The notes beneath the pieces are model-generated. The model was given only the letters and a program-made list of their open reading frames with translations, was not told the origin of the DNA and searched no databases. This document shows, piece by piece, positions 1 through 32,635 of a DNA stretch of 32,854 nucleotides. Origin of the DNA: an uncultured Bacilli bacterium (GTDB lineage: Bacteria; Bacillota_I; Bacilli_A; RF39; UBA660); the NCBI GenBank assembly GCA_947624125.1, contig CANQIY010000002.1, positions 1-32,854 on the forward strand, in the 5' to 3' direction. Numbering within the stretch: position 1 is the first letter of the stretch; each line of letters begins with the position of its first letter. Made by a program: the position numbers and the translations under genes.

Positions 1-603
1 GTAGCTTATCTTTCTCATTCAGCATATGGAATAGGAACAGAAATAAGAATAAATAACAATGAAACATACATGACAGGATATTCAGCAGCATCAAATACTG
101 ACCAAAGTAGTATTCCTGGTGAAAGAGGAATAGATGATAAAGTAACAAAACCATACGATACACCAACCGGGTACTTAGCCAGTACAACTGGCAATATAAC
201 AGGTATATATGATATGAGTGGCGGAGCTCATGAATATGTAGCTGGGTATAGTAAAAATATAGAAGAAAAAAGTGGTTTTAGTGAAGACCCTAGTACAAAA
301 TATCCAGGTTATTTTGATAAATATCCGGACGATAGCTCTTGGCGTACTACTAACAAACGTATCTTAGGAGATGCAACAGGGGAAATGGGTCCATTCTATA
401 ATTATTACGAAAAAAACGGGACTTCATATTATCACAATGCTTGGTACGCCGACTATTCGAACTTCGTTGACTCGACGTACCCATGGTTCTATCGTGGGGG
501 CCTTTACGACGATGGAGTTCTCGCAGGTCAGTTCTACTTCGGTAGGAACACGGGAGGTGCGTATTCGAACGTTTCCTCACGTCTTGTTCTCGCCCCACAA
601 TGA
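1..603 (+). CDS. 3' part of a larger gene (open from nt 1, frame 1): FGE-sulfatase/C-type-lectin-fold protein, DGR variable (target) protein
   Basis: Frame 1 has no stop from nt 1 to TGA at 601-603, so the tracked ATG at 70 is internal. GIYDMSGGAHEYVAG resembles the G-x-YDMSGNVWEW signature of FGE/CLec domains. The C-terminal 52 codons are the VR of a VR/TR pair. Confidence 0.8.
   Translation, partial: VAYLSHSAYGIGTEIRINNNETYMTGYSAASNTDQSSIPGERGIDDKVTKPYDTPTGYLASTTGNITGIYDMSGGAHEYVAGYSKNIEEKSGFSEDPSTKYPGYFDKYPDDSSWRTTNKRILGDATGEMGPFYNYYEKNGTSYYHNAWYADYSNFVDSTYPWFYRGGLYDDGVLAGQFYFGRNTGGAYSNVSSRLVLAPQ
448..603 (+). repeat. DGR variable repeat (VR), including a 15-nt 3' IMH-like end (589-603)
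   Basis: Direct repeat of 827-982. Differs from it in the first 141 nt only at 12 positions, and the other copy has A at every one. Confidence 0.85.
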
Positions 604-640
604 CTTTTTTCCCTTCATTCATTTAAGTCATCTTGTTAAA

Positions 641-673
641 GCCATCCCCACCTTCTTTTTTAGTGGGGATGGC
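641..673 (+). other. GC-rich perfect hairpin 38 nt downstream of VR (11-bp stem gccatccccac/gtggggatggc, 11-nt loop)
   Basis: Perfect inverted repeat 641-651 / 663-673. It is followed by an A-run rather than a T-run on the + strand, so it is not a canonical intrinsic terminator for the target gene. Confidence 0.6.
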
Positions 674-789
674 TAAAGAAAAAATAAAAAAAATAAAAAA
701 ATAAAAATTAAATACTGCTTTGGCATTTATAATGGTTATCAGTTTAATATACTGATAATACATGTTTAAATATAAATGTAGGTCATAAG

Positions 790-818
790 TTGTCAAAACT
801 ATCTTTTTTAAATAATAA
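790..818 (+). promoter_or_regulatory. Candidate sigma-70-type promoter immediately upstream of TR
   Basis: TTGTCA (790-795), 17-nt spacer, TAATAA (813-818). The predicted start falls a few nt before TR nt 827. Confidence 0.3.
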
Positions 819-826
819 CTCTTTTT

Positions 827-982
827 GCCGACAATTCGAACTTCGTTGACTCGACGAACCCATGGTTCAATCGTGGGGGCAATTACAACAATGGAGTTCT
901 CGCAGGTCAGTTCAACTTCAATAGGAACACGGGAGGTGCGAATTCGAACATTTCCTCACGTCTTGTTTTAACCCCTCAATAA
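827..982 (+). repeat. DGR template repeat (TR), non-coding, with an IMH*-like 3' end (968-982)
   Basis: Same-strand copy of 448-603. It carries A at all 12 mismatch positions. Nine AAY (Asn) codons correspond to diversified VR codons. It lies outside any supported ORF. Confidence 0.85.
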
Positions 983-1018
983 AAAATAAACAATTACACA
1001 GCTTGTTTATTTTTTTTA
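982..1018 (+). terminator. A/T-rich hairpin flanked by an A-run and a T-run (possibly a bidirectional terminator) directly after TR
   Basis: aaaaataaacaa (982-993) pairs perfectly with ttgtttattttt (1003-1014), followed by more T. The stem is weak and almost all A-U. It overlaps the stop codon of the convergent gene. Confidence 0.4.
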
Positions 1019-1305
1019 GTTTTTTTCATATTAATTTTTTCTAAAGTTTTTAATAAATCTTCGGCATCTTTTAGTTCTGTCTCTTTAATGTAAGAATTTA
1101 GTTTACTAAAAGAGTTATTTTTATAAACAATAGCAATTAACCACCCACTAATAAGAGCTCTTTTAAAACGAAAAATATAACAAATATCTTTATCTTTTGA
1201 AAATTTATTAGTATAAACTATTTTAAAGGGATTATATCCAATACCATTTTTAGTACATAACCATTCTCTTAATAATTCTTGAGCTTTTAAAACATCATTA
1301 TTCAT
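994..1305 (-). CDS. Hypothetical 103-aa protein, convergent with TR
   Basis: Strong RBS (AGAGGTG, 5 nt before the ATG). No motif recognised. Not Avd-like and not an RT. Confidence 0.6.
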   Translation of the reverse strand: MNNDVLKAQELLREWLCTKNGIGYNPFKIVYTNKFSKDKDICYIFRFKRALISGWLIAIVYKNNSFSKLNSYIKETELKDAEDLLKTLEKINMKKTKKNKQAV

Positions 1306-1490
1306 TTATTCACCTCTTCAAATTTAAACACTATTCTAAAATAATTTTCACATATTATAATCTAAAAGTAAAGATAAAGGAAATGCTTATTGTCAAGTTA
1401 TACTATACTTATTTACACTTAATTAACATACAGTGTCTATTGACTTTGGCTTTTATAAATAGCTATAATTATAATGAAAGGTATTAAAGA

Positions 1491-2798
1491 ATGAAGAAAA
1501 GTATAAAAATAATTTTAGGAGCAATGGTTGGTTTTTTAAGCATTGCCAAAGTAAATGCTTTAACTCCTACTGATGTTTTTGATGAGTTAGCCCCAAATGA
1601 TGTAATGGCAGTTGATATAGTAAAACCTAAAGAAATATCTTCCCATTTAACGGCGTGGCTTAGTTCCAAATTAAAAACCGATATTATTGCATCAGTAGAT
1701 AACTGTAATAATGATGAAACAAATTGTGATGTTACAATTAGTATTAATGATGAAAATGAGCTTAATACTTTAACAAAAAATATTAATTTTAAGTGGCATG
1801 AAAAAGAAGATGCAATTTTAAAAATTGTTGAAGATAATAAACATAACTTAGAAGAAAAAGAAATAGTTATAACTGATTTAGCTTATTTAAGTTATTTAAA
1901 TAGTGAAAATAAGAAAATAACCGATTTTTTAGATTTAAAAGATGTTTATAATGACTATAATATAAGTGACTTTTGGCTCGAAAAAGATAATGCTCTAGCT
2001 AGTGTTTATTTATTTTATAATGGTATATTATATGATTATAAAGAAGATTTAAATATTATTAAGGAAAATATAATATATGTTTCTAGTGATACTTTAGAAG
2101 AAGATATATTAAAAGTTGCTAAAGAAAGAATAGATACTTATTTTGGGAAAGATAAAATAGACATTGCTATTGGAGGTTCAGTTAGCGAGTTAGATATTAG
2201 TAATTTACCTAAAATAGATAAAAGAAAAATGAGTGAAAATTACTATAATGTCACATTAACTAATGGAGATATTGTAAAATTTATAATTGTAAAAGATGAA
2301 ACTAAATATATGGCTTCAGAAAGAGAATTAACTGATAATGGAGTAAGTATAATAACAAATTCTAGTTTAGTTAAAGAAAATGCTACTTTAAAAGTTAATA
2401 AAATAAATAGTAATACAACAGAATATAATAATTTAAAAGAAATATTTAAAAGTGATTTTATAGCTTATGATATAAATATTGATAATAAAATTACTAATAT
2501 AGGAAATGATACCTTTATTGTTAAAATTCCTCTTAATGAAAATTTTACAAATAGAGATTTAGTAGCGTATTATATAAATGAAGATAATACTTTAGAAGAA
2601 CATGAAATAGTAATTGATAAATTAGGTAATGCTATATTTACAACTAATCATTTAAGTAAATATATTATTACAGGTCGAATAGGAGTTATAAACCCTGAAA
2701 TAACTCCCCAAACAGGTGATAATATAGTTCTTTATGTTGGTTTATTTATTGTTTCTATCGGAGCTATTGCCTTTGCTATAAAGAAATTTTGGAAATAA
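1491..2798 (+). CDS. Cell-wall-anchored surface protein (signal peptide plus sortase-type sorting signal)
   Basis: N-terminal MKKSIKIILGAMVGFLSIAKVNA. C-terminal TPQTGD, then a hydrophobic helix and a KKFWK tail, an (S/P)PxTG-like sortase motif. Confidence 0.7.
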   Translation: MKKSIKIILGAMVGFLSIAKVNALTPTDVFDELAPNDVMAVDIVKPKEISSHLTAWLSSKLKTDIIASVDNCNNDETNCDVTISINDENELNTLTKNINFKWHEKEDAILKIVEDNKHNLEEKEIVITDLAYLSYLNSENKKITDFLDLKDVYNDYNISDFWLEKDNALASVYLFYNGILYDYKEDLNIIKENIIYVSSDTLEEDILKVAKERIDTYFGKDKIDIAIGGSVSELDISNLPKIDKRKMSENYYNVTLTNGDIVKFIIVKDETKYMASERELTDNGVSIITNSSLVKENATLKVNKINSNTTEYNNLKEIFKSDFIAYDINIDNKITNIGNDTFIVKIPLNENFTNRDLVAYYINEDNTLEEHEIVIDKLGNAIFTTNHLSKYIITGRIGVINPEITPQTGDNIVLYVGLFIVSIGAIAFAIKKFWK

Positions 2799-2803
2799 GA
2801 AAG

Positions 2804-2829
2804 TTAGTTCAAATAGAACTGATTTTTTT
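2804..2829 (+). terminator. Intrinsic terminator after the surface-protein gene
   Basis: ttagttc-aaata-gaactga stem-loop followed by TTTTTTT. Confidence 0.55.
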
Positions 2830-2854
2830 CATTAATGTGTTATAATAATACTTT

Positions 2855-3358
2855 GTGGGGATGAATAACATGTTTAGTTTTGAAAAATTTATTGCAGGAG
2901 CATTAATTTATTATCCAAAAATAGATGAATTTGATATGGAAATATTGTTCACTGAATTTAAGAAAAAATCTCCTAATATTAAGATAACAAAAGTATTTAA
3001 TTTAAATTTAATAGGTAATTATGTTTATGTAAATAATGGTTATTTAATGTTAAAACCTAATTTAACATTAGATACATATGTTAATAGTATGGAAAAAACA
3101 ATAAGAGAATTATTTAGAGATTTAGCTGGGACTAATATTAATAAGTTTTTTCAAACTTTTCTAAGAGAAGACTTTATTTTACAAAAAATCGCATTATATA
3201 AGTATTTATCTTTAGAAAATGAATTTTTAGAAGAAGAAAAAGAGGCCATTATTGAACTTTTAGAACAGGGTTATTTAAAGAAAGATAAACAAGTTTTAAG
3301 TTTATCACGAAAAGGTTTAATAAAAATAGCAAATAATAAAAAGGAAGTAATATTATGA
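2855..3358 (+). CDS. Hypothetical protein (start ambiguous: GTG 2855, ATG 2861 or ATG 2870)
   Basis: ORF only. Its TGA stop overlaps the next gene's ATG (ATGA at 3355-3358), indicating an operon. Confidence 0.5.
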   Translation: MGMNNMFSFEKFIAGALIYYPKIDEFDMEILFTEFKKKSPNIKITKVFNLNLIGNYVYVNNGYLMLKPNLTLDTYVNSMEKTIRELFRDLAGTNINKFFQTFLREDFILQKIALYKYLSLENEFLEEEKEAIIELLEQGYLKKDKQVLSLSRKGLIKIANNKKEVIL

Positions 3359-3927
3359 AGTGTATTAAATGTCAAAGTAAAAACCGGAATTATGCTAATT
3401 ATTGTAAAAATTGTGGTTATCATTTTTCAAAAGAAGAACAAGAAGCTGCTTCTAAATGGAGTTTACCATGGTTTTTAGAAAAAATAGATAACTTCAAAAA
3501 GCTCATAACCTTAGATATTTTAAAAGGCAATATTATTTATCGGATATTATCAATAATAGTAGTTTTATTTATAGGTATTTATATGATAATTGTTAATGGT
3601 TTAAATATGAAAATATTGCCTAGTGATAATTATAAAATAGAATTTAATAAGAAAGAAAAAGAATATTATATTATCAATAAAGAAGAAGAAACCAAATTAA
3701 ATTTATATTTACCAAATAAGATTAAAGAAATAAAAATTATATTGTATGATAAAAATAATAATATTATAAAAGAAACAAATTATCAAAAGAAAGATGATAT
3801 TATCTTAAATGATAATTATGATGAAAATTATTATGTAATAGAAAGTATAAGTAATTCTAAAGTAGAAGATAAGATAAAGTTATATGTATACTTACAAGAT
3901 AATGTTGAGGTGTCTGATGAAAAATAA
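3355..3927 (+). CDS. Zinc-ribbon domain membrane protein
   Basis: N-terminal CIKCQSKNRNYANYCKNCG (CxxC-x10-CxxC), followed by one hydrophobic helix (IIYRILSIIVVLFIGIYMIIV). Confidence 0.6.
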   Translation: MKCIKCQSKNRNYANYCKNCGYHFSKEEQEAASKWSLPWFLEKIDNFKKLITLDILKGNIIYRILSIIVVLFIGIYMIIVNGLNMKILPSDNYKIEFNKKEKEYYIINKEEETKLNLYLPNKIKEIKIILYDKNNNIIKETNYQKKDDIILNDNYDENYYVIESISNSKVEDKIKLYVYLQDNVEVSDEK

Positions 3928-4825
3928 TAAATATTGTCTTTTTTGTGGAGCTTTAAATGAAGAAAGTCATAAAATTTGTAAAAAGTGCCATAAAATTATT
4001 AAACCGGAATTAAATGATTTTTTAAAATATTTAAAAGATAATATAAATGATGAATTAAAAGATAAAGTAGAAGATAAAGTAACTTCTATTATAATTAATT
4101 ATATTAAATCACATCTATATGGTTTTATTTTAACTTGTTCTATAGTATTAAGTGTAGCAAGTGGAGTTATAGTTCATGTCAATAATACAAAAGATATTGT
4201 TAATGTATTGGAAAAACCAACTGTAATGCATCTTTATAGGGGAGAGGGGTTAACAAGTAGAGAAGTTGTTACCAAATATGTAGAAGCCCTTAGTAAAGAT
4301 GCTCTAAATACAGCAACATCTTTACAATTAGATAACTATTATCCGGAATTAAAGAAAGATTTTCCAAGAATTGTTTATTTTATAGATGATAGTGAATTTC
4401 AAAAACCAACACATATATTATTATCTTTGAAAGATACTTATTTTAGTCATCTAAATAATTATAATATTTCTTCTTTAACTATTGAAGAAGATGAGGGGTA
4501 TAGTCCTTATTATTATCAAGATAAATATTTAGTGGAAACTTATACAGTTACAACAGAATATTGTTCATTTAATAATTGTGATAATAGTAATAAATTATTA
4601 GTTACAACATTTGTACAAACTGTCCAAATTGATGGTAATTTCTATGTTTCAGCTTCTGAATATACCGCAATGGATATTGGTAGTTCTTATAAATTCTATA
4701 TGTTACAAAAAGAAAATGGTAATCCTACAAATTTAGATTTTAATAAATTAGATGAAGAATTATATGCTTGTATTGATAATTATGTTGGTTGTGAAAATAT
4801 TGCTCCGGAATTTTGGCAAGATTAA
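3917..4825 (+). CDS. Zinc-ribbon domain membrane protein (paralogous architecture to the preceding gene)
   Basis: Start moved to ATG 3917 (GAGGTG RBS at 3905-3912; overlaps the upstream stop). CLFCGALNEESHKICKKCH zinc ribbon plus a TM helix. Confidence 0.6.
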   Translation: MKNNKYCLFCGALNEESHKICKKCHKIIKPELNDFLKYLKDNINDELKDKVEDKVTSIIINYIKSHLYGFILTCSIVLSVASGVIVHVNNTKDIVNVLEKPTVMHLYRGEGLTSREVVTKYVEALSKDALNTATSLQLDNYYPELKKDFPRIVYFIDDSEFQKPTHILLSLKDTYFSHLNNYNISSLTIEEDEGYSPYYYQDKYLVETYTVTTEYCSFNNCDNSNKLLVTTFVQTVQIDGNFYVSASEYTAMDIGSSYKFYMLQKENGNPTNLDFNKLDEELYACIDNYVGCENIAPEFWQD

Positions 4826-4828
4826 ATG

Positions 4829-4856
4829 AATAACTAAGAAATTAGTTATTTTTTTT
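4829..4856 (+). terminator. Intrinsic terminator
   Basis: aataacta-agaaat-tagttatt stem-loop followed by TTTTTT. Confidence 0.55.
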
Positions 4857-4865
4857 AATTTGTTT

Positions 4866-5483
4866 TTATTCTAATATATTTTTGCTAGTTATATTTCCAT
4901 CTTTATCTTTAATAAAAAATTCTGTTTTTTGATATGTTTTTTTGCCATTATTATCATAATATGTATATGTAACTTTATCAGGAGCATTTGGACTCGTAAA
5001 AGGGTCATAGCTACCTTTACCAAAATCACCATGTACTCTTACTTTTGTTCCCGTTAAGAGAAATCCATAGTAGTCATAATAATCGACATGGACACTGAAA
5101 AAAGAAGATGTAACAGCAACATATTTTTTACTATCTAAAGTTGTAGTATGTTCTGGGTTATAATAAAGAAATCCTACTAATTTTATAAAGGGAAAGAAAG
5201 AATAAATAGACACGATAATGGGGATTATACCTATGAAGGAAATAATCGCAGCTTTCTTTTTATTATCTGATGATAAAAAGATTTGTTGAATTATACCAAT
5301 TATAAAACCAATGATAGCTATTAAGATTATAAGAATAATAGCCCATAACCTAAATCTTATATTTATTAAATAAAGAATAAAATTAATTAATATGTTAATA
5401 CCAATAAAAATTAAATCACCAATTAATATATTATTTTTAAGAAATGTCATATATGTTTTAATTTTACTTTTCGTAATAGTCAC
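4866..5483 (-). CDS. Multi-pass membrane protein, unknown function (start uncertain)
   Basis: About 4 hydrophobic helices in the N-terminal half. The GTG start abuts the SD-like AAGAGG, so the real start is unclear. Confidence 0.5.
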   Translation of the reverse strand: MTITKSKIKTYMTFLKNNILIGDLIFIGINILINFILYLINIRFRLWAIILIILIAIIGFIIGIIQQIFLSSDNKKKAAIISFIGIIPIIVSIYSFFPFIKLVGFLYYNPEHTTTLDSKKYVAVTSSFFSVHVDYYDYYGFLLTGTKVRVHGDFGKGSYDPFTSPNAPDKVTYTYYDNNGKKTYQKTEFFIKDKDGNITSKNILE

Positions 5484-5699
5484 CTCTTATTTGCTATTAT
5501 ACTATAGATATGATTATAAATATATTGTTTGGTAAAAATTTTGTTATATAATTCACTTCGTCAACAAAGATTATAATTATATTGCAATTGTAAAAACAAA
5601 TTAAAAACTCCATTCATTATACATAAACCATTCACGTTCTAAACGTAAAGCTTCGAATTGAACAGAGTTCTAATATATTATTCTTTATTAAGGAATATA

Positions 5700-6902
5700 T
5701 TACTCTTCACTTAAAAAATCAATAATATTAATAACATGTATTCCTTCTATTTGTTTATTTTTTACATTATCCATAGTTAATATTATTTTTTTATAATTAT
5801 CATTTATTGCTAGAAGTGATTTTTTTTCACGTTCTTCTACTTTTTCATCCATTAGGCTTCTTGTAACTTGAAAGTATATTTTTTCGTTAGGATTTACGGC
5901 AATAAAATCAATTTCTATATCATTATATTGTCCTACATATACTTCGTAGCCGCGTCTCAATAATTCTATATATACAATATTTTCATAACTACTACCTGTA
6001 TCGTAAGATGAAATACCTGCAATGATATTTTTAATGCCATTATCTACAAAGTAATATTTCCCCTGGGTTTTTAGTAGTTGTTTTCCCTTTAATTCATATC
6101 GAGGAACTCTGTATATGAAATAAGCATTTTCTAACATTTTTAAATAAGAGTCAACTGTTTCATTTGTAATTAAACTGCCATTTTGCTTCATAAATTCGGC
6201 AATTTTATAAGGAGTTGTAAGATTACCAATTGTGGATGCCATATATTTGATTAAATTGTCCAAAAAGACAATATCTTTTATGTTATTACGACTAATGACA
6301 TCTTTTTTTAAAACAACTTCTTTTAAATCGTTTAAATAATTAATAATTAAATTTTCGTTATCGTTCATGTTGGCAATCATTGGCATTCCACCATATTTTA
6401 AATATTTATCAAATTTATCGAATTTGTCTTCTGTATCTTTAAAAGGATAGATGCTTATAAATTCTTTAAAAGAGAAAGGATATATTTTTATAGTTAAAAC
6501 TCTTCCTGCAAGAAGGGTAGTCAGTTCGCTTGATAATAAATATGCGTTTGAACCGGTTATGTAGATATCGGTATTAAAATCAACTAAAATAGAATTAACA
6601 GCTTTTTCCCACTTAGAAACATTTTGTACTTCATCAAGTAAAATATAAAATTTATTTTTGTTAACAATTCTATCCTTTATATAATTATATAAATCATTAT
6701 AATCATTAATATTATAAAATTCTGCACTTTCAAAATTCATATAAATTATATTTGTTTTATTAATATTTTGATTTAATAAATAATCTTTGTATTGAAGTAA
6801 TAAGGTACTTTTTCCCGCTCTTCGAACCCCAACTATAACCTTAATTAAATTAAGGTCTTTACTTTCAATTAATTTATTTAAATATTTTTCACGTATTAAC
6901 AT
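5700..6902 (-). CDS. AAA-type ATPase with C-terminal DUF4143-like domain (COG1373-type)
   Basis: Walker A GVRRAGKST and Walker B-like ILLDEVQ, with the typical family length. Start moved to ATG 6902 (GGGTG RBS 6 nt upstream). Minus-strand promoter candidate: TTGACA (6943-6948), 17 nt, TATATT. Confidence 0.7.
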   Translation of the reverse strand: MLIREKYLNKLIESKDLNLIKVIVGVRRAGKSTLLLQYKDYLLNQNINKTNIIYMNFESAEFYNINDYNDLYNYIKDRIVNKNKFYILLDEVQNVSKWEKAVNSILVDFNTDIYITGSNAYLLSSELTTLLAGRVLTIKIYPFSFKEFISIYPFKDTEDKFDKFDKYLKYGGMPMIANMNDNENLIINYLNDLKEVVLKKDVISRNNIKDIVFLDNLIKYMASTIGNLTTPYKIAEFMKQNGSLITNETVDSYLKMLENAYFIYRVPRYELKGKQLLKTQGKYYFVDNGIKNIIAGISSYDTGSSYENIVYIELLRRGYEVYVGQYNDIEIDFIAVNPNEKIYFQVTRSLMDEKVEEREKKSLLAINDNYKKIILTMDNVKNKQIEGIHVINIIDFLSEE

Positions 6903-7180
6903 ATTTAACACCCATATTAAATATATAATATTTTTTTGAATTTGTCAAGTTTTACGGCTGTAACCGTAAAAAAACATTTTTTTTGCTTTTTTACGGTTAT
7001 GAAATTAATTTTTCAGCAATAAAAAAATTTTTGATAATTTCTTTCATTTATCATGGAGCGATTGTGCAAGATGATTTCATTAGCTAAATTAGACCTAACT
7101 TTTTCTACTAAATTAGTAATAATTATTTTATCATATAAATTGCTAAATAATGTTAATATTAGTTACTTTTTTGTTTCAAT

Positions 7181-7206
7181 AAAAAATCATCTCTAGATAG
7201 AGATGA
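7181..7206 (-). terminator. Intrinsic terminator downstream of tRNA-Cys
   Basis: Palindrome tcatctctagatagagatga (7187-7206), followed on the minus strand by TTTTTT (7181-7186). Confidence 0.6.
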
Positions 7207-7247
7207 AATATATTTGAATGTCCGAGCATTCCGAACAGATTTATCAA

Positions 7248-7321
7248 TGGAGGAGCCGGCCGGATTTGAACCGGCGATGAAGGTGTTGCAGACCTGGGCC
7301 TTACCACTTGGCTACGGCTCC
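7248..7321 (-). tRNA. tRNA-Cys: tRNA-Cys (anticodon GCA), CCA encoded
   Basis: Minus-strand 74-nt cloverleaf. Acceptor GGAGCCG/CGGCTCC, T-arm GCCGG-TTCAAAT-CCGGC, anticodon loop CTGCAAC, 3' TCCA. Confidence 0.85.
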
Positions 7322-25843: not shown

Positions 25844-28207
25844 ATGCAAAAAAGTGAGATAATGGAAATTATCAATAAGAAAACAGCCGAAGCTAAAAAA
25901 ATTATTAATGAAATTAATGAATTAAAAAAGATGCTTAATAATTATGATAGTCAAAATAGAGCTATGTTTACAAATGAAGAAAAAGTAAATCTTTTTATGG
26001 ATTATTTTAAAGGTAGAGATAATATATATCCTTATCTTTCTATTGATAAAAAAGATACGAGTAAAAAATATTATATACCTAAGTGCGCTAATGAATGGAA
26101 TAAAAATGTTTGCTATAAGACAATGGGCAAAAAATGTAGGGATTGTCCCAATTGGTTAGATAAACCTATTGATAAAGAAGTAATTAGAAATCATTTATTT
26201 AATAATATACCAATTGGTATTTATCCTATGTTAGAAGATGAAACATGTTATTTTCTTGCCTTTGATTTTGATGATAAGAAAAATGAAAATACTATTAAAG
26301 AAGATGTTCTTGCTTTTGCTAGTGTTTGTGATAAATATAATGTGCCAATTGCGATTGAAAGAAGTAGGTCTGGGCATGGAATGCATATATGGATTTTTTT
26401 TGAAAATAATATAAAAGCTTCCATAGCAAGAAAGATGGGAAGTTTATTATTATCAAAAACGATGGAAATCCGTGATACTTTAAAAATAGACTCTTTTGAT
26501 AGAATGTTTCCTAATCAAGATACTTTACCTAAAGGTGGTTATGGTAATTTAATTATGCTTCCTTTTCAAAACGACCCGATGAAATACAATAATACAGTTT
26601 TTTTAGATAGAAATTTTTTAGCCTATAAAGACCAATACGCTTATTTAGCCAAAGTTAAAAAAATGAATTATGATGAAGTAGCAAGTATTATAAGAATATT
26701 ATCTATGAATACAATTGATATTAGTAATGAATATATGGAATTAAAAAAAGAAATAAATAATAAAGAAAAAAATAATTTTGATTTTCCAAATAACATTAAT
26801 GTTATATTAGATAATATGATTTATATAGATAAAGCTAATTTAAGTTCAGCAGTTAAAAATTGTTTTAGAAGACTAGCTACTTTTGCTAATCCGGAATTTT
26901 TTAAGAAACAAAGGATGAGAATGTCTGTTCATAATATTCCGATGATTATAGACTGTAGTAAAGAAGATGATAAGTATTTGATGCTCCCGAGAGGAAAACT
27001 AGAATATCTAAGTGTTTTATGTAATCAAAATAATATAAAAATGAATATTATTGATAAAAGAAATAAAGGCGAAAAAATAAATATAAAATTTAATGGGGAA
27101 TTAAGAGAAGAACAAAAACAAGCCCTAAATGGCATGTTGAAATATGAAAATGGTATTCTTGAGGCACCGACGGGATTTGGCAAAACAGTTATATGTTGTA
27201 AATTAATTGAAGAAAGAAATGTTAATACACTTATTATTACTTTTAATTTATCCCTTTTAAAACAATGGAAAGAAAGATTAAAAGAATTTTTAAATATTTC
27301 TCTAGTTGGACAGATTGGTGATGGAAAGAATACTTTGACAAATAAAATTGATGTGGCTAGTATTAAAGCAATATATAATGAGGGAAAATTTAATGATATG
27401 GTTAAAAACTATGGTATGATAATTATCGATGAGTGTCATCATTCATCTGCTTATACATATGAGGCGGCATTAAATATGGTCAATGCTAAATATGTGTATG
27501 GCGTATCAGCAACCCCAGAAAAAGAAAATGGTCATACTCCCATTATCAAAATGCAGTGTGGTGATATTAGATATAAAGTTGATATGAAGGAATATAATAA
27601 AAAATTAAATTTATCAATGAAAGTTTATAATAGAAGTGTTCATTTGAATTTTGTTAATAAAAATGTAACGGATTATAAGATTAATGAAATATATGATTTA
27701 ATAACCAAAGATGTGATAAGAAATGAAAAAGTTATTAAAGATGTAAAAAGGGAATTTGAAAAGGGGAAAAATATATTAGTTTTAACAGAAAGAATTGAAC
27801 ATTTAGAATATTTATTTACCAAATTATCTAAGATAACGGATAATATAATTATATATCGAGGCGGATTAGGTAAAAAGGTTTTAAAAAAATATGATGAATT
27901 AAATGATAATATAAAGAAAAATAATGAAAATAAAATTATAATTGCTACGAGTTCTTGCATTGGGGAAGGATTTGATGATTCTAGTTTGGAAGTTTTATTT
28001 TTAACGATGCCTATTTCAAGTATAAATAGAATAGTACAGTATACGGGAAGATTACATCGAAAGAATGAAAATAAAAAAGAAATAATTGTTTATGATTATG
28101 TTGATGATAATTTTGCAATGATTAGAAATATGTTTTTAAAAAGAAAGAAGGCATATGAAAAAGTTGGGTATGAAATTGTGGAAAATAATGGGCAAATGTC
28201 ATTATAA
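25844..28207 (+). CDS. Archaeo-eukaryotic primase (PrimPol)-like domain fused to an SF2 DEAD/DEAH-type helicase
   Basis: Cys cluster C-x8-C-x7-C-x2-C (CANEW...CRDC). AEP motifs LAFDFDD, SGHGMHIWIFF and FDRMFPNQD. Helicase motifs APTGFGKT (I), IIIDECHH (II), VSATP (III) and QYTGRLHR (VI). Confidence 0.8.
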   Translation: MQKSEIMEIINKKTAEAKKIINEINELKKMLNNYDSQNRAMFTNEEKVNLFMDYFKGRDNIYPYLSIDKKDTSKKYYIPKCANEWNKNVCYKTMGKKCRDCPNWLDKPIDKEVIRNHLFNNIPIGIYPMLEDETCYFLAFDFDDKKNENTIKEDVLAFASVCDKYNVPIAIERSRSGHGMHIWIFFENNIKASIARKMGSLLLSKTMEIRDTLKIDSFDRMFPNQDTLPKGGYGNLIMLPFQNDPMKYNNTVFLDRNFLAYKDQYAYLAKVKKMNYDEVASIIRILSMNTIDISNEYMELKKEINNKEKNNFDFPNNINVILDNMIYIDKANLSSAVKNCFRRLATFANPEFFKKQRMRMSVHNIPMIIDCSKEDDKYLMLPRGKLEYLSVLCNQNNIKMNIIDKRNKGEKINIKFNGELREEQKQALNGMLKYENGILEAPTGFGKTVICCKLIEERNVNTLIITFNLSLLKQWKERLKEFLNISLVGQIGDGKNTLTNKIDVASIKAIYNEGKFNDMVKNYGMIIIDECHHSSAYTYEAALNMVNAKYVYGVSATPEKENGHTPIIKMQCGDIRYKVDMKEYNKKLNLSMKVYNRSVHLNFVNKNVTDYKINEIYDLITKDVIRNEKVIKDVKREFEKGKNILVLTERIEHLEYLFTKLSKITDNIIIYRGGLGKKVLKKYDELNDNIKKNNENKIIIATSSCIGEGFDDSSLEVLFLTMPISSINRIVQYTGRLHRKNENKKEIIVYDYVDDNFAMIRNMFLKRKKAYEKVGYEIVENNGQMSL

Positions 28208-28394
28208 TTTTTAAATTTGTGTTACGATAAAATGAAACATTATTATGTATAAAAATGAAGAAGAATTAAGTAAAATTATAGATGAAATGCAGTAAACGAA
28301 GTAACTTATGAGTGAAATAAAGAAAATTAGTGAAAAAAATAAAAATCTTAATAAAGAGATATGGTATTTCTGTAAAAGTGTAGGAATATTTACA

Positions 28395-29639
28395 TTAATC
28401 TTCTTTTTCTATTATTTTTTCTAATTCAATTCCAATTTTTTCTATTATACCTACTACAAGAGCGTTACCCATCATAAAATTTCTTTTTTTATCAGTCATT
28501 CCCGTATTTGTCCAATTATCTGGAAATCCATTAATTCTTTCACATTCAATAGGGGTTAATAATCTTATTTTTTTAGTCTTATAGTCTTCAATAATATGAG
28601 TAGTTCTGCTGATTCCACCTTCGCTAGTTAGCATTGTTCTAGCTGGTACTTCTAAATTATCTGGACAAGGCATAGCTCCCTCGGCATAAAAATATTTTTC
28701 ACCATTAGGCTTGGTTCTAAGAATCCTTTTATTACCTTTTAAATATTGAAACTTTTTATATTCCTTATCACTTAAAAAGAATTTTTTATCGACTTCTTCA
28801 TGTTGAATTAATTTTTTTAATGGGTAAATATCATTACATTCTGAAACTACTTTAAAAGTATAAGTTTTTCCATTGCACATGAGACCAGCATTATAAAATT
28901 GTGCCTTAAATTTATTACTAACTTCTACTAAATTTTTAAAAGAATTTTTTGATAAATTGGCAGTTTTAAATTCTAATTCTTCATCTTTAATTGGAAATTG
29001 TTTAACAAATATACCATCATTAAAGATTATATCTTTTGGATTTATTTTGGCAATGGATTTATAATATTTAGTAGATTTATGATAGGCAAAGATAAATACT
29101 CTTCTTCTTTTTTGTGGTAAACCATATTCACCAGCATTAATAACTCTCCATTGAACACCATATCCACAATCCATAAAACTTCTTAAAATAATACCAAAAT
29201 CTCTGCCTCTTTGTTTTGCGGGTGATAATAGCAACCTATCAACATTTTCTAACAAAACGAAGGGTGGCTTCTTTGCTTTTAATACATCATTAATAGCCCA
29301 CCATAAAACGCCTTTTTTGCCTTCAATACCTTTACTATTTGAAAGCGTTTGAGCAACAGAGTAATCTTGACACGGAAAACCTCCCACTAAAAGGGTATGG
29401 TTTGGAATTTTTTCTTTATCAACTTGGAATATATCAACATTACTCACATTTTTTTCTCCAAATCTTTTAACATAACAATCAAAAGCTTCTTGTGTTTTTG
29501 TTGAAGGCTCCCATTGGTTGGCCCATAAAAATTCCCAATTACCTTTTTCTTTAACTTTATTTTTAGTGAGTTCAACTTTATTTAAACCACATCTAAATCC
29601 ACCGACACCAGCAAATAGCTCTACTACGGTTTTCTTCAT
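28395..29639 (-). CDS. DNA (cytosine-5)-methyltransferase
   Basis: Motif I ELFAGVGGF, IV GGFPCQDYS, VI LLENV, VIII QKRRRVF, X GNALVV. RBS AGGAGG. Confidence 0.9.
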   Translation of the reverse strand: MKKTVVELFAGVGGFRCGLNKVELTKNKVKEKGNWEFLWANQWEPSTKTQEAFDCYVKRFGEKNVSNVDIFQVDKEKIPNHTLLVGGFPCQDYSVAQTLSNSKGIEGKKGVLWWAINDVLKAKKPPFVLLENVDRLLLSPAKQRGRDFGIILRSFMDCGYGVQWRVINAGEYGLPQKRRRVFIFAYHKSTKYYKSIAKINPKDIIFNDGIFVKQFPIKDEELEFKTANLSKNSFKNLVEVSNKFKAQFYNAGLMCNGKTYTFKVVSECNDIYPLKKLIQHEEVDKKFFLSDKEYKKFQYLKGNKRILRTKPNGEKYFYAEGAMPCPDNLEVPARTMLTSEGGISRTTHIIEDYKTKKIRLLTPIECERINGFPDNWTNTGMTDKKRNFMMGNALVVGIIEKIGIELEKIIEKED

Positions 29640-30089
29640 GTTTATTCCTCCTATAATTGTTTAAATCTACTATATTGTTTATAATATGATGGAAAAAATT
29701 AATTTCCTACTTATATTTTAAACCAATCTTTAAATTAAAACAAGATCAAAAAAAGAATTTTATAAGAAAGGTTCGATTAGACAATAGGAAGAAATGGAGC
29801 TTACCACTAAATAAATAGGTAGTAGATAACTACTATGTTATATATGGCAATAAGAAAAGATTTAAAAATTATTTCATTTTTATTGACTTTAACCATATTA
29901 TGAATTATATTAAAGGTGATAAACGAAAAACTTTGTTGGTATAAATGAAAATGAAGAGTATTGTGTAATATATGCAAAAGTAATTAAATTATCAGTAGTG
30001 AGTCATTAACTGGTTAGAAATACAAGAACAATATTTTTGGATTTATAATAAAAGAAATATTTAAAGAATTTAGTTAGGAGACAATTATT

Positions 30090-30830
30090 ATGGAAGAATT
30101 AAAATGGTTAACACCAAAATGTTGTGAAGAAAAAAGGAATTATAGGATAAAGCAAGCAAAGCAATTTGATAAAGGAATAGATAAGCCAGTCACAATTAAT
30201 TTATCCTTTGAAAATAATATTAAATATGGATTTCGTAATCCTGGCAAAGATGATGGTAAACCTATTAAAAATAGTAAAAATAAAAGAAGAGATATGACTC
30301 CATTTGTTGAAGCAGAAAATAATCCTATATCGACAGGTGAATTTAAAAATATATGGGGAGTATTATTAACATTACAACAAATTTTGGATAAAAGTATATT
30401 ATTAAAACTATATAGATTAATTTATAAACTTGCATTCATGGTAGATTTTGATTTTAATGAAGAAAATAAATGTTATATGCCAAATAGCACATTTATTAAT
30501 GATATACAATATATACAAGAAGAGATAAATAAAGCTGGTTCTGATATTAATATTAAATCATTTATAATATTACTTGATTTACTTGGATGGAATGAAGATT
30601 ATAAATATCAGTTAACAGATGATGTAGCAGATAGTCCGTGGACAGGAAGACTTAATTGTTTGATTTGTATGATATCAGTACCTATTGAGTTAAATAAGCT
30701 TAATATTAAAAAGGGAGAGAAAATAAATTTTGATAGTTTACTTGAAATGTGTTATGCATTTTGTATGTCTAGAGGAATATTTGTATTAAAGAAAAGTGAA
30801 TTAATTCAAGAATTAGAATTGGAGGAATAA
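30090..30830 (+). CDS. Hypothetical 246-aa protein, divergent from the methyltransferase (possible cognate nuclease or other defence component)
   Basis: TAGGAG RBS. No family recognised. There is only a weak D...(E/D)xK-like string (LLDLLGWNEDYKY). Confidence 0.5.
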   Translation: MEELKWLTPKCCEEKRNYRIKQAKQFDKGIDKPVTINLSFENNIKYGFRNPGKDDGKPIKNSKNKRRDMTPFVEAENNPISTGEFKNIWGVLLTLQQILDKSILLKLYRLIYKLAFMVDFDFNEENKCYMPNSTFINDIQYIQEEINKAGSDINIKSFIILLDLLGWNEDYKYQLTDDVADSPWTGRLNCLICMISVPIELNKLNIKKGEKINFDSLLEMCYAFCMSRGIFVLKKSELIQELELEE

Positions 30831-31194
30831 GTAATATATTTCTCCTTTTTATAAACCATTAAGGGTGTATGAATGAACTAAGATTTATCTAATTTTCATT
30901 TCACAAAATAATTTTAATTTTCATACCTTATATTAGGTGATAAAACTATGAATGAAAGAGTAAGTAAAAAGGTGGTAATTGATGCTGGACACCCGAGTTT
31001 TGATAAACCCGATAAATTAAAACTTGGGTTGTAGCAAAAAAGAATCTATGATTTATGATAAAAATTATAATAAGATACTTGGGTAAGTGTCTATTAATTT
31101 GAAAAAAATTAGGAAAATAATTTTCTTTTGTGGTAATTTATGGTATTATATAAAATTAAGAAATTGTTTTGATATGCATAGATATGGAGGTCAT

Positions 31195-32076
31195 ATGAGT
31201 ATAACCAATAAATTTACTGAATTTTGCAATAACATTAAAATTAGCAAAGAAAATTTAGATTGTATAAGCGATAGATATCATAAAATAACAAGAAGAATAA
31301 ATATAGACTATTGGAATACGGAATCTGATATTAACCATAGTTTATATGTTGGATCATTTGGAAGAGATACGGAGATTTATTGTAGTGATATAGATATGTT
31401 GGTTGAATTACCTTATTTTGTTTATGAAAAATATAATAATTATCAAGGAAATGGACAATCTGCATTATTACAAGATGTTAAAAAGGTGATAGAAAAAACC
31501 TATGTTTATTCTAACTTAAAAGGTGATGGTCAAATAATTAGTTTGCCTTTTAGTGATGGAATAAATTTTGAAATTCTACCTGCTTTTGTAAATACTGATA
31601 ATATTAGTTTTACTTTTCCTAATTCAAATAATGGCGGAAGTTGGAAAAAAACAAATCCGAGGGCTGAAATTAATGCCGTGAATGAATTAAATAAAACTTG
31701 TAATGGTAATTTAAAAAAATTATGCAGAATGGTAAGAGCATGGAAAAAATACAATAATGTTGATATAAGTGGTATTTTGATAGATATATTATGTTATAGA
31801 TTTTTAGAAAATTGGGAATATCGTGCAAATTCTTTAGAATATTTTGATTGGTTAACAAGAGACTTTTTTAAGTATTTATCTGAAATTGATTTGAATCAGT
31901 CTGAATGGTATATAATGGGTAGCAATAGAAAAATAGTTGATAATGGATATTTTCAAGGTAAAGCAAAAAAGGCCTATGAAACATCTTTAGAAGCAATAGA
32001 ATATGAAAATAAAAAGTATGAATGGTCTGCTAATCAAAAATGGAGGGATATATATGGAACGAAATTTCCACAATAG
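31195..32076 (+). CDS. SMODS-type (CD-NTase-like) nucleotidyltransferase
   Basis: Start moved to ATG 31195 (GGAGG RBS). Pol-beta NTase signature GSFGRDTEIYCSDIDMLV, then FEILPAF as the third acidic position. Confidence 0.75.
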   Translation: MSITNKFTEFCNNIKISKENLDCISDRYHKITRRINIDYWNTESDINHSLYVGSFGRDTEIYCSDIDMLVELPYFVYEKYNNYQGNGQSALLQDVKKVIEKTYVYSNLKGDGQIISLPFSDGINFEILPAFVNTDNISFTFPNSNNGGSWKKTNPRAEINAVNELNKTCNGNLKKLCRMVRAWKKYNNVDISGILIDILCYRFLENWEYRANSLEYFDWLTRDFFKYLSEIDLNQSEWYIMGSNRKIVDNGYFQGKAKKAYETSLEAIEYENKKYEWSANQKWRDIYGTKFPQ

Positions 32077-32635
32077 CCAAGGATATAAATTAGAATCGCA
32101 ATTAAGAGAGGCCTTTGGTAAAGTTGTTTATACTCAAACATGTCACAATAAAATGGCTGAAAGATTTGCTAAAAGAGATAATAATATTAAAATTTTTCAA
32201 ATTGTGCTTTCTGCAATGACAACGGGAGGCTTTATTACAACTATAATATGTGATGATACGATTGTTAAAATAATAGGCTCAATAATATCATTTTTATTAT
32301 TAATATTTAATTCTTACACTAAAAATTTTAATTTAATTGAAAAAGCAGAGTCTCATAAAAATGCTGCTAATTTGTTGTGGAAAATTAGAGAAGAGTATAT
32401 ATCAGTATTAACTGATTTTGAAATATTGGATGTAGATAAAATTATTTCAATACGAAATGATTTACAAAACAGAACATACGAAATTTATAATAGTTCTCCA
32501 AGAACAGATAAAAAAAGTTATTTACAAGCTCAAAAAAGTTTAAAAACTGAAGAAGAACAAACTTTTTCTGAAAAAGAAATTGATAATATGCTCCCTAATT
32601 CAATTAGACGAGAAAATAGAAAATATAAGGAATAA
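32054..32635 (+). CDS. SLATT-domain two-transmembrane effector
   Basis: Start moved to ATG 32054 (GGAGGG RBS), overlapping the NTase gene by 23 nt. Helical N-terminus, two TM helices (IFQIVLSAMTTGGFITTIIC; IIGSIISFLLLIF), helical C-terminus. Always-adjacent partner type of SMODS. Confidence 0.65.
   Translation: MERNFHNSQGYKLESQLREAFGKVVYTQTCHNKMAERFAKRDNNIKIFQIVLSAMTTGGFITTIICDDTIVKIIGSIISFLLLIFNSYTKNFNLIEKAESHKNAANLLWKIREEYISVLTDFEILDVDKIISIRNDLQNRTYEIYNSSPRTDKKSYLQAQKSLKTEEEQTFSEKEIDNMLPNSIRRENRKYKE

Follow-up and report, generated by a model that had tools for sequence, protein, structure and literature searches.

The front half of a diversity-generating retroelement cassette, with a template repeat and neither spacer nor reverse transcriptase, in an uncultured Bacilli bacterium

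A DGR repeat pair at the left end of the contig

We examined a stretch of 32,854 nt from an uncultured Bacilli bacterium (GenBank assembly GCA_947624125.1, contig CANQIY010000002.1), hereafter the window, which carries at its left end the variable repeat (VR) and the template repeat (TR) of a diversity-generating retroelement (DGR). The window is the whole contig, and its left end is an assembly break inside the DGR target gene. What it holds is the front half of a DGR cassette of the type that encodes MutS-like (MSL) and Avd proteins, without the spacer RNA, the MSL and Avd genes, the reverse transcriptase (RT) gene, or remnants of any of them. The features of the locus, including one open reading frame (ORF) of the opposite strand, are listed in the order in which they lie.

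1-603, plus strand: 3' part of the DGR target gene, 200 codons and a TGA stop, the N-terminus being lost at the contig end
448-588, plus strand: VR core, 141 nt, with 12 differences from TR, all at TR adenines
589-603, plus strand: VR tail with the stop codon, differing from the TR tail at both adenine and non-adenine positions
640-674: GC-rich hairpin after VR, 12-bp stem and 11-nt T-rich loop, candidate DGR target-recognition hairpin or cruciform
719-730, plus strand: conserved non-coding motif TTTGGCATTTAT, with TGGCATTTAT invariant in the aligned cassettes
772-793, plus strand: conserved leader ATAAATGTAGGTCATAAGTTGT, the leader profile matching 769-803 (E 6.9e-10)
780-791, plus strand: leader segment AGGTCATAAGTT, upstream strand of the TR-bracketing helix of intact relatives
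827-982, plus strand: TR, with core 827-967 and diverged tail 968-982, reading ADNSNFVDSTNPWFNRGGNYNNGVLAGQFNFNRNTGGANSNISSRLVLTPQ and then a stop in the VR frame
981-1024: AT-only hairpin with T-run, stem 981-993 with 1003-1015, 13 bp and a 9-nt loop
994-1305, minus strand: convergent 103-aa ORFan, on the non-DGR side of the junction

VR and TR form a direct repeat of 154 nt (448-601 and 827-980) with 90% identity. When the two copies were aligned, 14 of the 16 mismatches fell at TR adenines, and 13 lay at codon position 1 or 2 of the plus-strand ORF that ends with the TGA at 601-603. Over the 141 nt of the core, all 12 mismatches are at TR adenines and none is at any other base, while the final 13 nt of the repeat contain four mismatches, two of them non-adenine. 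Since the mismatches are adenine-specific, this is a genuine DGR VR/TR pair, and VR occupies the last 51 codons of the target ORF ending at 603, the 3' position that marks a DGR target. With the stop codon included, the VR and TR tails differ at 5 of 15 positions and, by analogy with the DGR of phage BPP-1, the VR tail is likely to be the 3' limit of homing, a boundary resembling the initiation of mutagenic homing (IMH) site. The absence of non-adenine change in the core, set against the diverged 15-nt tails, suggests that the core was homogenised over a long time by homing until recently. In the VR frame TR contains NSNF..STNPWFNRGGNYNNG...FNFNRNTGGANSN, and its tail, TTTTAACCCCTCAATAA, is unique to this locus.

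A search pattern made from TR with every A replaced by N matched just VR and TR in the window (chance expectation 0) and had no match in the genome, metagenome and viral collections. Additional VRs, which an earlier reading of the DNA from its letters and ORFs (the sequence-only reading) had proposed to look for, were thus limited to the known pair in the window, with none in the collections. The TR-encoded peptide retrieved five TR-derived ORFs of other species from the protein database, and no identical copy.

Complete cassettes in related bacteria

Among 80 fetched loci, four carried an RT gene (L048, L049, L065 and L074), and 11 further loci came from scanning metagenomes for a 23-mer that does not vary among the TRs compared. 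Complete cassettes were found in these four, in L096 and in close copies of L048. Their order is constant, namely the target gene with VR, about 190 nt, TR, a spacer of about 150-200 nt, and then the genes of the MSL protein, bAvd and RT, and this order was kept in all TR loci with enough downstream DNA, with the exception of L100. The cassette proteins are a 154-aa MutS-domain-I protein (PF01624, 1.2e-9), a 120-aa bAvd (PF22296, 8.3e-15) and an RT of about 340 aa (RVT_1, 7.4e-16). VR and TR in the four cassettes from GTDB genomes differ at 9-17 positions, virtually all of which are TR adenines.

This arrangement bears directly on the layout against which the locus had been judged. The sequence-only reading took the canonical order target-avd-TR-RT as its standard, which is wrong for this lineage, where avd lies 3' of TR and is not expected between VR and TR. 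It was correct that 604-826 has no avd; the ORF list gives no credible ORF there, just a minus-strand ORF of 57 aa with a TTG start and the end of an ORF in another frame. An Avd gene between VR and TR was accordingly rejected, and its absence from 604-826 is normal because avd is 3' of TR in the lineage. DGRs that contain MSL always carry avd too (Architecture D; Wu et al. 2018, PMC5758913), and the relatives share with these MSL-type DGRs the TR, the small MutS-domain-I protein, Avd and RT. The target, VR, leader and TR of the window are homologous to theirs; the window differs in having no MSL, Avd, RT or spacer.

The relatives also share a non-coding order, made up of a GC hairpin, TGGCATTTAT, the leader ATAAATGTAGGTYATAAGTTGT, TR, the spacer, and a hairpin with T-run. 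The spacer (about 200 nt) contains TYTAMGGAYTT, TTTAGAAAYTTATRACCT, AGATAAAAAT and GTTAGTAGTAAAATGGTGAAAATC, and ends in the hairpin and T-run just before the ribosome-binding site of MSL. A profile of the spacer matched 14 RT-bearing loci with E values of 1e-29 to 1e-47, together with the partial loci L102, L104 and L105. Segment AGGTYATAAGTT of the leader has its complement in AAYTTATRACCT of the spacer, and the two can be drawn as a 12-bp helix that brackets TR. In this alignment 98.6% of cells pair, compared with 32-54% when the partner is slid by 1-3 columns, and the pair types change at three positions (U-A/C-G/U·G; A-U to G-C; G·U/G-C/A-U). In a shuffle control on six sequences, 38 of 500 shuffles reached the observed score, a modest result.

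A pairing of this kind has been characterised in BPP-1, where the cPRT Stop is an 11-bp pairing of a segment just upstream of TR with the spacer, and where deletion of its upstream strand abolishes reverse transcription; duplexes like it, with a mean of 13 bp, are predicted in 207 of 278 Avd-type DGRs (10.1101/2023.10.23.563531). Both the BPP-1 spacer and the upstream:spacer duplex are needed for cDNA synthesis, the spacer giving the priming site (PMC6182149; 10.1101/2023.10.23.563531). The leader-spacer helix of the relatives fits the BPP-1 duplex by this analogy.

The comparison with BPP-1 (mtd-avd-TR-brt) extends to the adenine-specific VR/TR differences, the place of VR at the C-terminus of a lectin-fold protein, the GC-rich hairpin 3' of VR and, in the intact relatives, an upstream-spacer duplex of 11-13 bp. 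In contrast, the lineage studied here has the order target-TR-MSL-avd-RT, its hairpin has a T-rich loop of 10-12 nt where phage DGRs have a GRNA tetraloop (PMC3240598), and the window is devoid of the spacer strand and of the DGR proteins.

Elements retained between VR and TR

The window aligns with the cassettes through the 3' end of the target, the hairpin, the conserved motif, the leader and TR, and the homology ends a few bases past TR. Its TR shares 83-89% identity with those of intact cassettes and contains the 23-mer that is invariant among the TRs compared, and its leader agrees with the family consensus.

The hairpin at 640-674 (dG -22.5 to -23.5 kcal/mol, z -5.45) is a GC hairpin 3' of VR of the kind found in DGRs. 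All DGR-linked relatives have a hairpin at this place, about 36-48 nt past the stop codon, with a stem of 11-14 bp and a T-rich loop of 10-12 nt, and the stems vary in sequence between loci with the pairing kept. TR-less paralogues of the target have ordinary AT-rich terminators in place of the GC hairpin, which is thus specific to the DGR-linked copies. By analogy, it fits the target-recognition hairpin or cruciform of Guo et al. (PMC3240598), the loop differing. An ordinary terminator was considered for this element and rejected, there being no T-run after the stem on either strand. Because of this lack of a T-run, read-through from the target gene could supply the TR RNA, and a discrete transcript of 190 nt would not be required.

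Such a transcript, self-contained and of about 190 nt, had been proposed from the letters alone, on the strength of a promoter candidate (TTGTCA-17-TAATAA, 790-818) upstream of TR and a hairpin downstream of it. The string is indeed present at 790-818. As a promoter, however, it fared poorly, as the consensus scan was silent, the -10 hexamer is unconserved and TTGTCA is part of the leader motif. The downstream hairpin is a real fold with a T-run (981-1024; dG -7.8 kcal/mol, z -3.1), overlapping the 3' end of the convergent ORF; it was not reported by the terminator scan, and as a terminator-like element it is unique to the window among the cassettes compared. With an unconserved promoter, a hairpin peculiar to this locus and no downstream strand for the helix, the self-contained transcript was not upheld.

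Some further observations concern the same interval. On the minus strand, 769-796 reads as a sigma-70-like site (TTGACA-16-TATATT, 11 of 12 consensus positions) inside the leader motif, with similar hexamers in most relatives; it may be a promoter that reads antisense towards VR, or may arise simply from conservation of the RNA motif. The A-rich tract after the post-VR hairpin (675-715, about 40 nt) is far longer in the window than in the other aligned cassettes, and over 22 nt its complementarity to the T-run 3' of TR (1003-1024) reaches 91%, probably a low-complexity coincidence. GC content is 38-40% over the target 3' end and the VR/TR region (VR 53%, TR 47%), about 20-28% over the next 11 kb and 25.7% over the contig.

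The missing half and the junction 3' of TR

No RT and no Avd was found by Pfam among all 34 window ORFs of at least 80 aa, and BPP-1 Brt and Avd, searched with phmmer against all stop-to-stop ORFs of at least 60 aa, had no match in the window. The lineage-specific MSL, Avd and RT proteins gave no tblastn match to the window at E <= 0.01, and at E <= 10 the best was at 0.027, which is chance level. The statement of the sequence-only reading that the window has no RT was therefore confirmed by Pfam, phmmer and tblastn. Within the 32.8-kb contig, which starts inside the target, there is thus no DGR-type RT near TR; the accessory proteins Avd and MSL, both present in relatives, are likewise absent from the window, and in place of the single cassette of TR, MSL, avd and RT that defines Architecture D there is a fragment with the TR-side half.

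The RNA-side elements were missing as well. The spacer profile had no match in the window (best E 0.8), and the lone weak match was the reverse complement of the window's own leader, which independently confirmed the complementarity of leader and spacer. No partner strand for the leader was found near TR, the nearest candidate in the window being about 1.5 kb downstream; of the spacer and its cPRT Stop-type duplex, just the upstream strand at 780-791 is present. Rfam has no family covering the VR/TR region.

Where the relatives have the spacer, the window has the AT hairpin and the convergent ORF, whose stop codon is 11-12 nt past the end of TR, as had been noted, and whose ATG is preceded at 5 nt by AGAGGTG. 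The same gene had been called well-supported, an assessment that the comparison weakened. The 103-aa product has no homologue among 5.8 billion proteins and no Pfam or NCBIfam match, and the sequence in front of it is lost in a second contig. This contig (L001; ENA sample ERZ27249647, 1,981 nt, 2x coverage) was independently assembled, ends inside TR and holds the same TR 3' end, AT hairpin, 103-aa ORF and next gene. It is identical to the window over about 1.9 kb save for one 8-bp indel and three substitutions near its end. The indel (1309-1316, TTCACCTC), the sole difference outside TR, takes out the GAGGTG Shine-Dalgarno of the 103-aa ORF in L001. By our estimate, an ORF of such length is unlikely by chance in AT-rich DNA, which leaves room for a real gene here. 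That it might be a divergent accessory protein or an RT remnant was considered and rejected, since it belongs to no family, has no homologue and does not resemble MSL, Avd or RT.

Because the junction between TR and the ORF is reproduced in L001, it does not depend on one assembly. The three substitutions are all in TR (890, 914 and 943; A>G, A>C and T>G), no more than 56 nt from where L001 ends, and are probably read-end errors or a mixing of VR and TR in assembly; if they were real, TR itself would vary between strains. Extension of the contig to the left by exact look-up of the 103-aa ORF found just L001, which ends inside TR.

Disrupted and partial relatives

Two other loci depart from the complete arrangement. 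L100 (locus 1-7262) keeps the VR end, hairpin, leader, TR, spacer and a 217-aa MutS_I protein, and has no Avd or RT. Downstream of MSL it has a 123-aa ORF, a Tpt1/KptA RNA 2'-phosphotransferase, a Cys-rich protein, an HTH_36 protein, a tyrosine integrase and a Mob_Pre relaxase, and the cassette appears to have been interrupted or replaced by an integrative mobilisable element. The RNA 2'-phosphotransferase is a curious neighbour for a system that primes from an RNA 2'-OH.

L103 is a contig of 547 nt from another sample (ENA ERZ27298658), with 46 nt available past TR. Its TR tail, TCACGTCTTGTTTTAGCCCCTTAA, is close to the unusual TR tail of the window, its VR tail is of the common family type, and two positions of the helix strand in its leader are changed (AGGCTTTAAGTT). 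An AT hairpin of 15 bp (dG -14 kcal/mol) starts 18 nt past TR. The 46 nt available gave no significant match to the spacer, and the last bases resemble spacer elements by eye. L103 is either a second example of the arrangement in the window or a cassette with a shortened linker.

The target family

The truncated target has 810 homologues, nearly all from uncultured "Bacilli bacterium" gut metagenome-assembled genomes (MAGs), and the GTDB representative genomes contain 577 confirmed target-family loci, a single MAG from rabbit, human or mouse gut having as many as 8 or more. Full-length relatives are about 330-635 aa, and the member in L048 begins with a signal peptide. PF03781 (FGE-sulfatase, with a C-type-lectin-like fold) was matched by 20 of 32 members, and the fragment in the window had no PF03781 match above threshold; a lectin-like fold of the FGE-sulfatase or C-type-lectin kind is usual for DGR targets. 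The contig break comes directly after KNTEWGA, the most conserved block of the family.

Most copies are dispersed or tandem in the chromosome with no TR or RT within 10 kb, and linkage to TR and RT was seen for just one copy per genome. In these uncultured gut Bacilli the copies often form tandem pairs, with 80-84% nucleotide identity. When the dispersed paralogues were compared with the TR of their own genome, many non-adenine differences were found; given these differences and the absence of the GC hairpin, a role as current targets in trans was not supported for them. The variable columns across the paralogues coincide with TR adenine codons, which suggests diversification in the past followed by duplication.

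Origin of the locus and alternative readings

The locus is an object of a known kind, an RT-less TR/VR remnant of an MSL-type DGR. The reading that we favour, with a probability of about 0.68, is that it is a 3'-truncated or partly duplicated DGR cassette, a recent remnant in which TR would be a relic and not a stand-alone template gene. The front half, that is the target with VR, the post-VR GC hairpin, the leader and TR, would have been retained, and the 3' half, that is the spacer RNA of about 200 nt with the partner strand of the helix and its own terminator, the MutS-domain-I gene, bAvd and RT, would have been lost, its place being taken by the AT hairpin and the orphan convergent ORF. 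This could have come about by a deletion or rearrangement with its breakpoint just 3' of TR, or by a partial duplication of the front half to a new site. Judging from BPP-1, a TR transcript without the spacer would not support cDNA synthesis; TR is taken for a relic because in BPP-1 the priming site lies in the spacer and the duplex is indispensable. The event is placed in the recent past since VR and TR agree at every non-adenine position of the core and neither the template's adenines nor the leader has decayed. A recent truncation would explain this, or else continued service of VR by a complete cassette elsewhere; had the front half been duplicated, its adenine-only pattern might have been carried over with the copy. 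Of the outcomes that the sequence-only reading had set out, the decayed DGR is thus the best supported, as a clean truncation 3' of TR, with a VR that may be frozen or may still be rewritten by a complete cassette elsewhere in the genome.

Several points weigh against this reading. The clean adenine-only mismatches and the intact TR and leader have the look of an active system, and can belong to a relic only if the truncation is recent. The DNA to the left of the contig start is unseen, and an RT module could lie upstream or elsewhere in the genome. No relative was close enough for synteny, as the right-hand genes of the window have no homologues in the fetched loci except L001, and the state before truncation was thus not rebuilt. 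The need for a spacer comes from one experimental system, BPP-1, and the helix rests on six to eight sequences with modest statistics. If L103 is truly without a spacer, then the arrangement in the window might be a maintained variant.

The same evidence can be read with the missing components placed elsewhere in the genome. In one version, which has a small but real chance of being right, a complete master cassette, with a TR that matches at non-adenine positions, acts on VR as a remote target, and the local TR is a passenger copy left by partial duplication. For TR this agrees with the truncated cassette that we favour, and it differs in that VR would not be frozen. The many dispersed paralogues per genome point to frequent duplication of the target family, the DGR-specific hairpin is still present beside VR, remote targets have been documented, and more than one DGR occurs in about 10% of DGR-containing genomes (PMC5758913). 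However, the dispersed paralogues of the relatives differ from their own TR at many non-adenine sites, so that diversification in trans is not the rule, and no master copy of TR was found in the collections or the protein database. Less probable again is a split but working DGR, an RT acting in trans having also been among the options of the sequence-only reading; here RT, Avd and MSL encoded elsewhere would use the local TR transcript in trans, and TR would really be a template gene on its own. Trans action is possible for DGR components, and TR and RT do not have to share a transcript (PMC5758913), L103 may share the arrangement, and a working system would account for the lack of any non-adenine VR/TR difference over 141 nt, the intact TR adenines and leader and the retained hairpin. 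Against it stands the absence of the whole spacer and of the helix partner, present in every intact relative and equivalent to an RNA essential for priming in BPP-1 (PMC6182149; 10.1101/2023.10.23.563531); in addition, the proposed promoter is not conserved and the collections and the protein database hold no second copy of TR. A related possibility, to which we assign a slightly lower standing still, is that TR works as a satellite template, its RNA made up of leader and TR, ending at a terminator of its own and reverse-transcribed by RT, Avd and MSL from elsewhere, with the functions of the spacer provided in trans or with priming unlike that of BPP-1. Were this true, DGR templates would be dispersible as independent RNA genes, with L103 as a possible second case.

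Two readings place the answer beyond the assembled sequence. An RT module just upstream of the truncated target, in the order RT...target-TR, had been put forward in the sequence-only reading and is unlikely, on a level with the satellite template. The contig does start inside the target with its left flank unseen, and 48 architectural variants of DGR cassettes, RT-TR orders included, have been described (PMC5758913). Yet no related TR locus has RT 5' of the target, the module being always 3' of TR; the spacer that always accompanies TR would still be missing; and a break directly after the most conserved protein block fits paralogous repeats, not a DGR module. It would be more surprising than any of these if the junction of TR with the 103-aa ORF were an assembly chimera and the real TR continued into spacer, MSL, Avd and RT. 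VR/TR repeats and multicopy targets often break or confuse short-read assemblies, many members of the target family lie at contig ends, and the coverage of L001 is just 2x. Nevertheless, the same junction is present in that independently assembled contig, and a chimera needs a second repeat exactly at the 3' end of TR, where none was seen.

The nearest precedent is Nostoc all3226, an RT-less paralogue with remnant TR-VR homology, read as dispersal of variable-protein genes with loss of the diversification machinery (PMC7517822). As in the window, a paralogue of a DGR target family has a TR/VR pair with no RT gene or pseudogene nearby; in contrast, the window belongs to another phylum and DGR lineage, the core of its pair is pristine, free of non-adenine mismatches, and the break is located to a few bases from where TR ends. 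The locus agrees with the view that genes for variable proteins disperse as paralogues and lose the mutagenesis machinery, and offers a clean example of the dismantling of a cassette, broken a few bases past TR with the VR-side signals intact and the RNA-side signals half lost. DGR surveys that begin from RT miss such RT-less TR/VR pairs. Possibly the more useful by-product is the recognition that the DGR template of gut Bacilli sits in a discrete conserved non-coding unit of leader, TR, spacer and terminator, in which the covarying helix that brackets TR gives a sequence-level test of whether a TR can still function. If it were true that this TR works without a spacer, the view of DGR RNA requirements would change.

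Remainder of the contig

By Pfam, the contig is otherwise ordinary low-GC chromosome (25.7%), with PheS/PheT, RelA/SpoT, rubrerythrin and some defence genes. Its Rfam matches are just two. A DUF3800-VIII sRNA (5604-5671, minus strand, 48.2 bits) lies just downstream of a gene for an AAA_14/DUF4143 ATPase, and a tRNA-Cys (GCA; 7248-7321, minus strand) is about 340 nt upstream of the same gene, with no integrase nearby. A defence-type cluster occupies 25844-32635 and comprises a 787-aa AEP-TOTE primase fused to a ResIII/DEAD helicase, a C-5 cytosine methyltransferase on the minus strand, and a SMODS nucleotidyltransferase followed by a SLATT_4 membrane effector.

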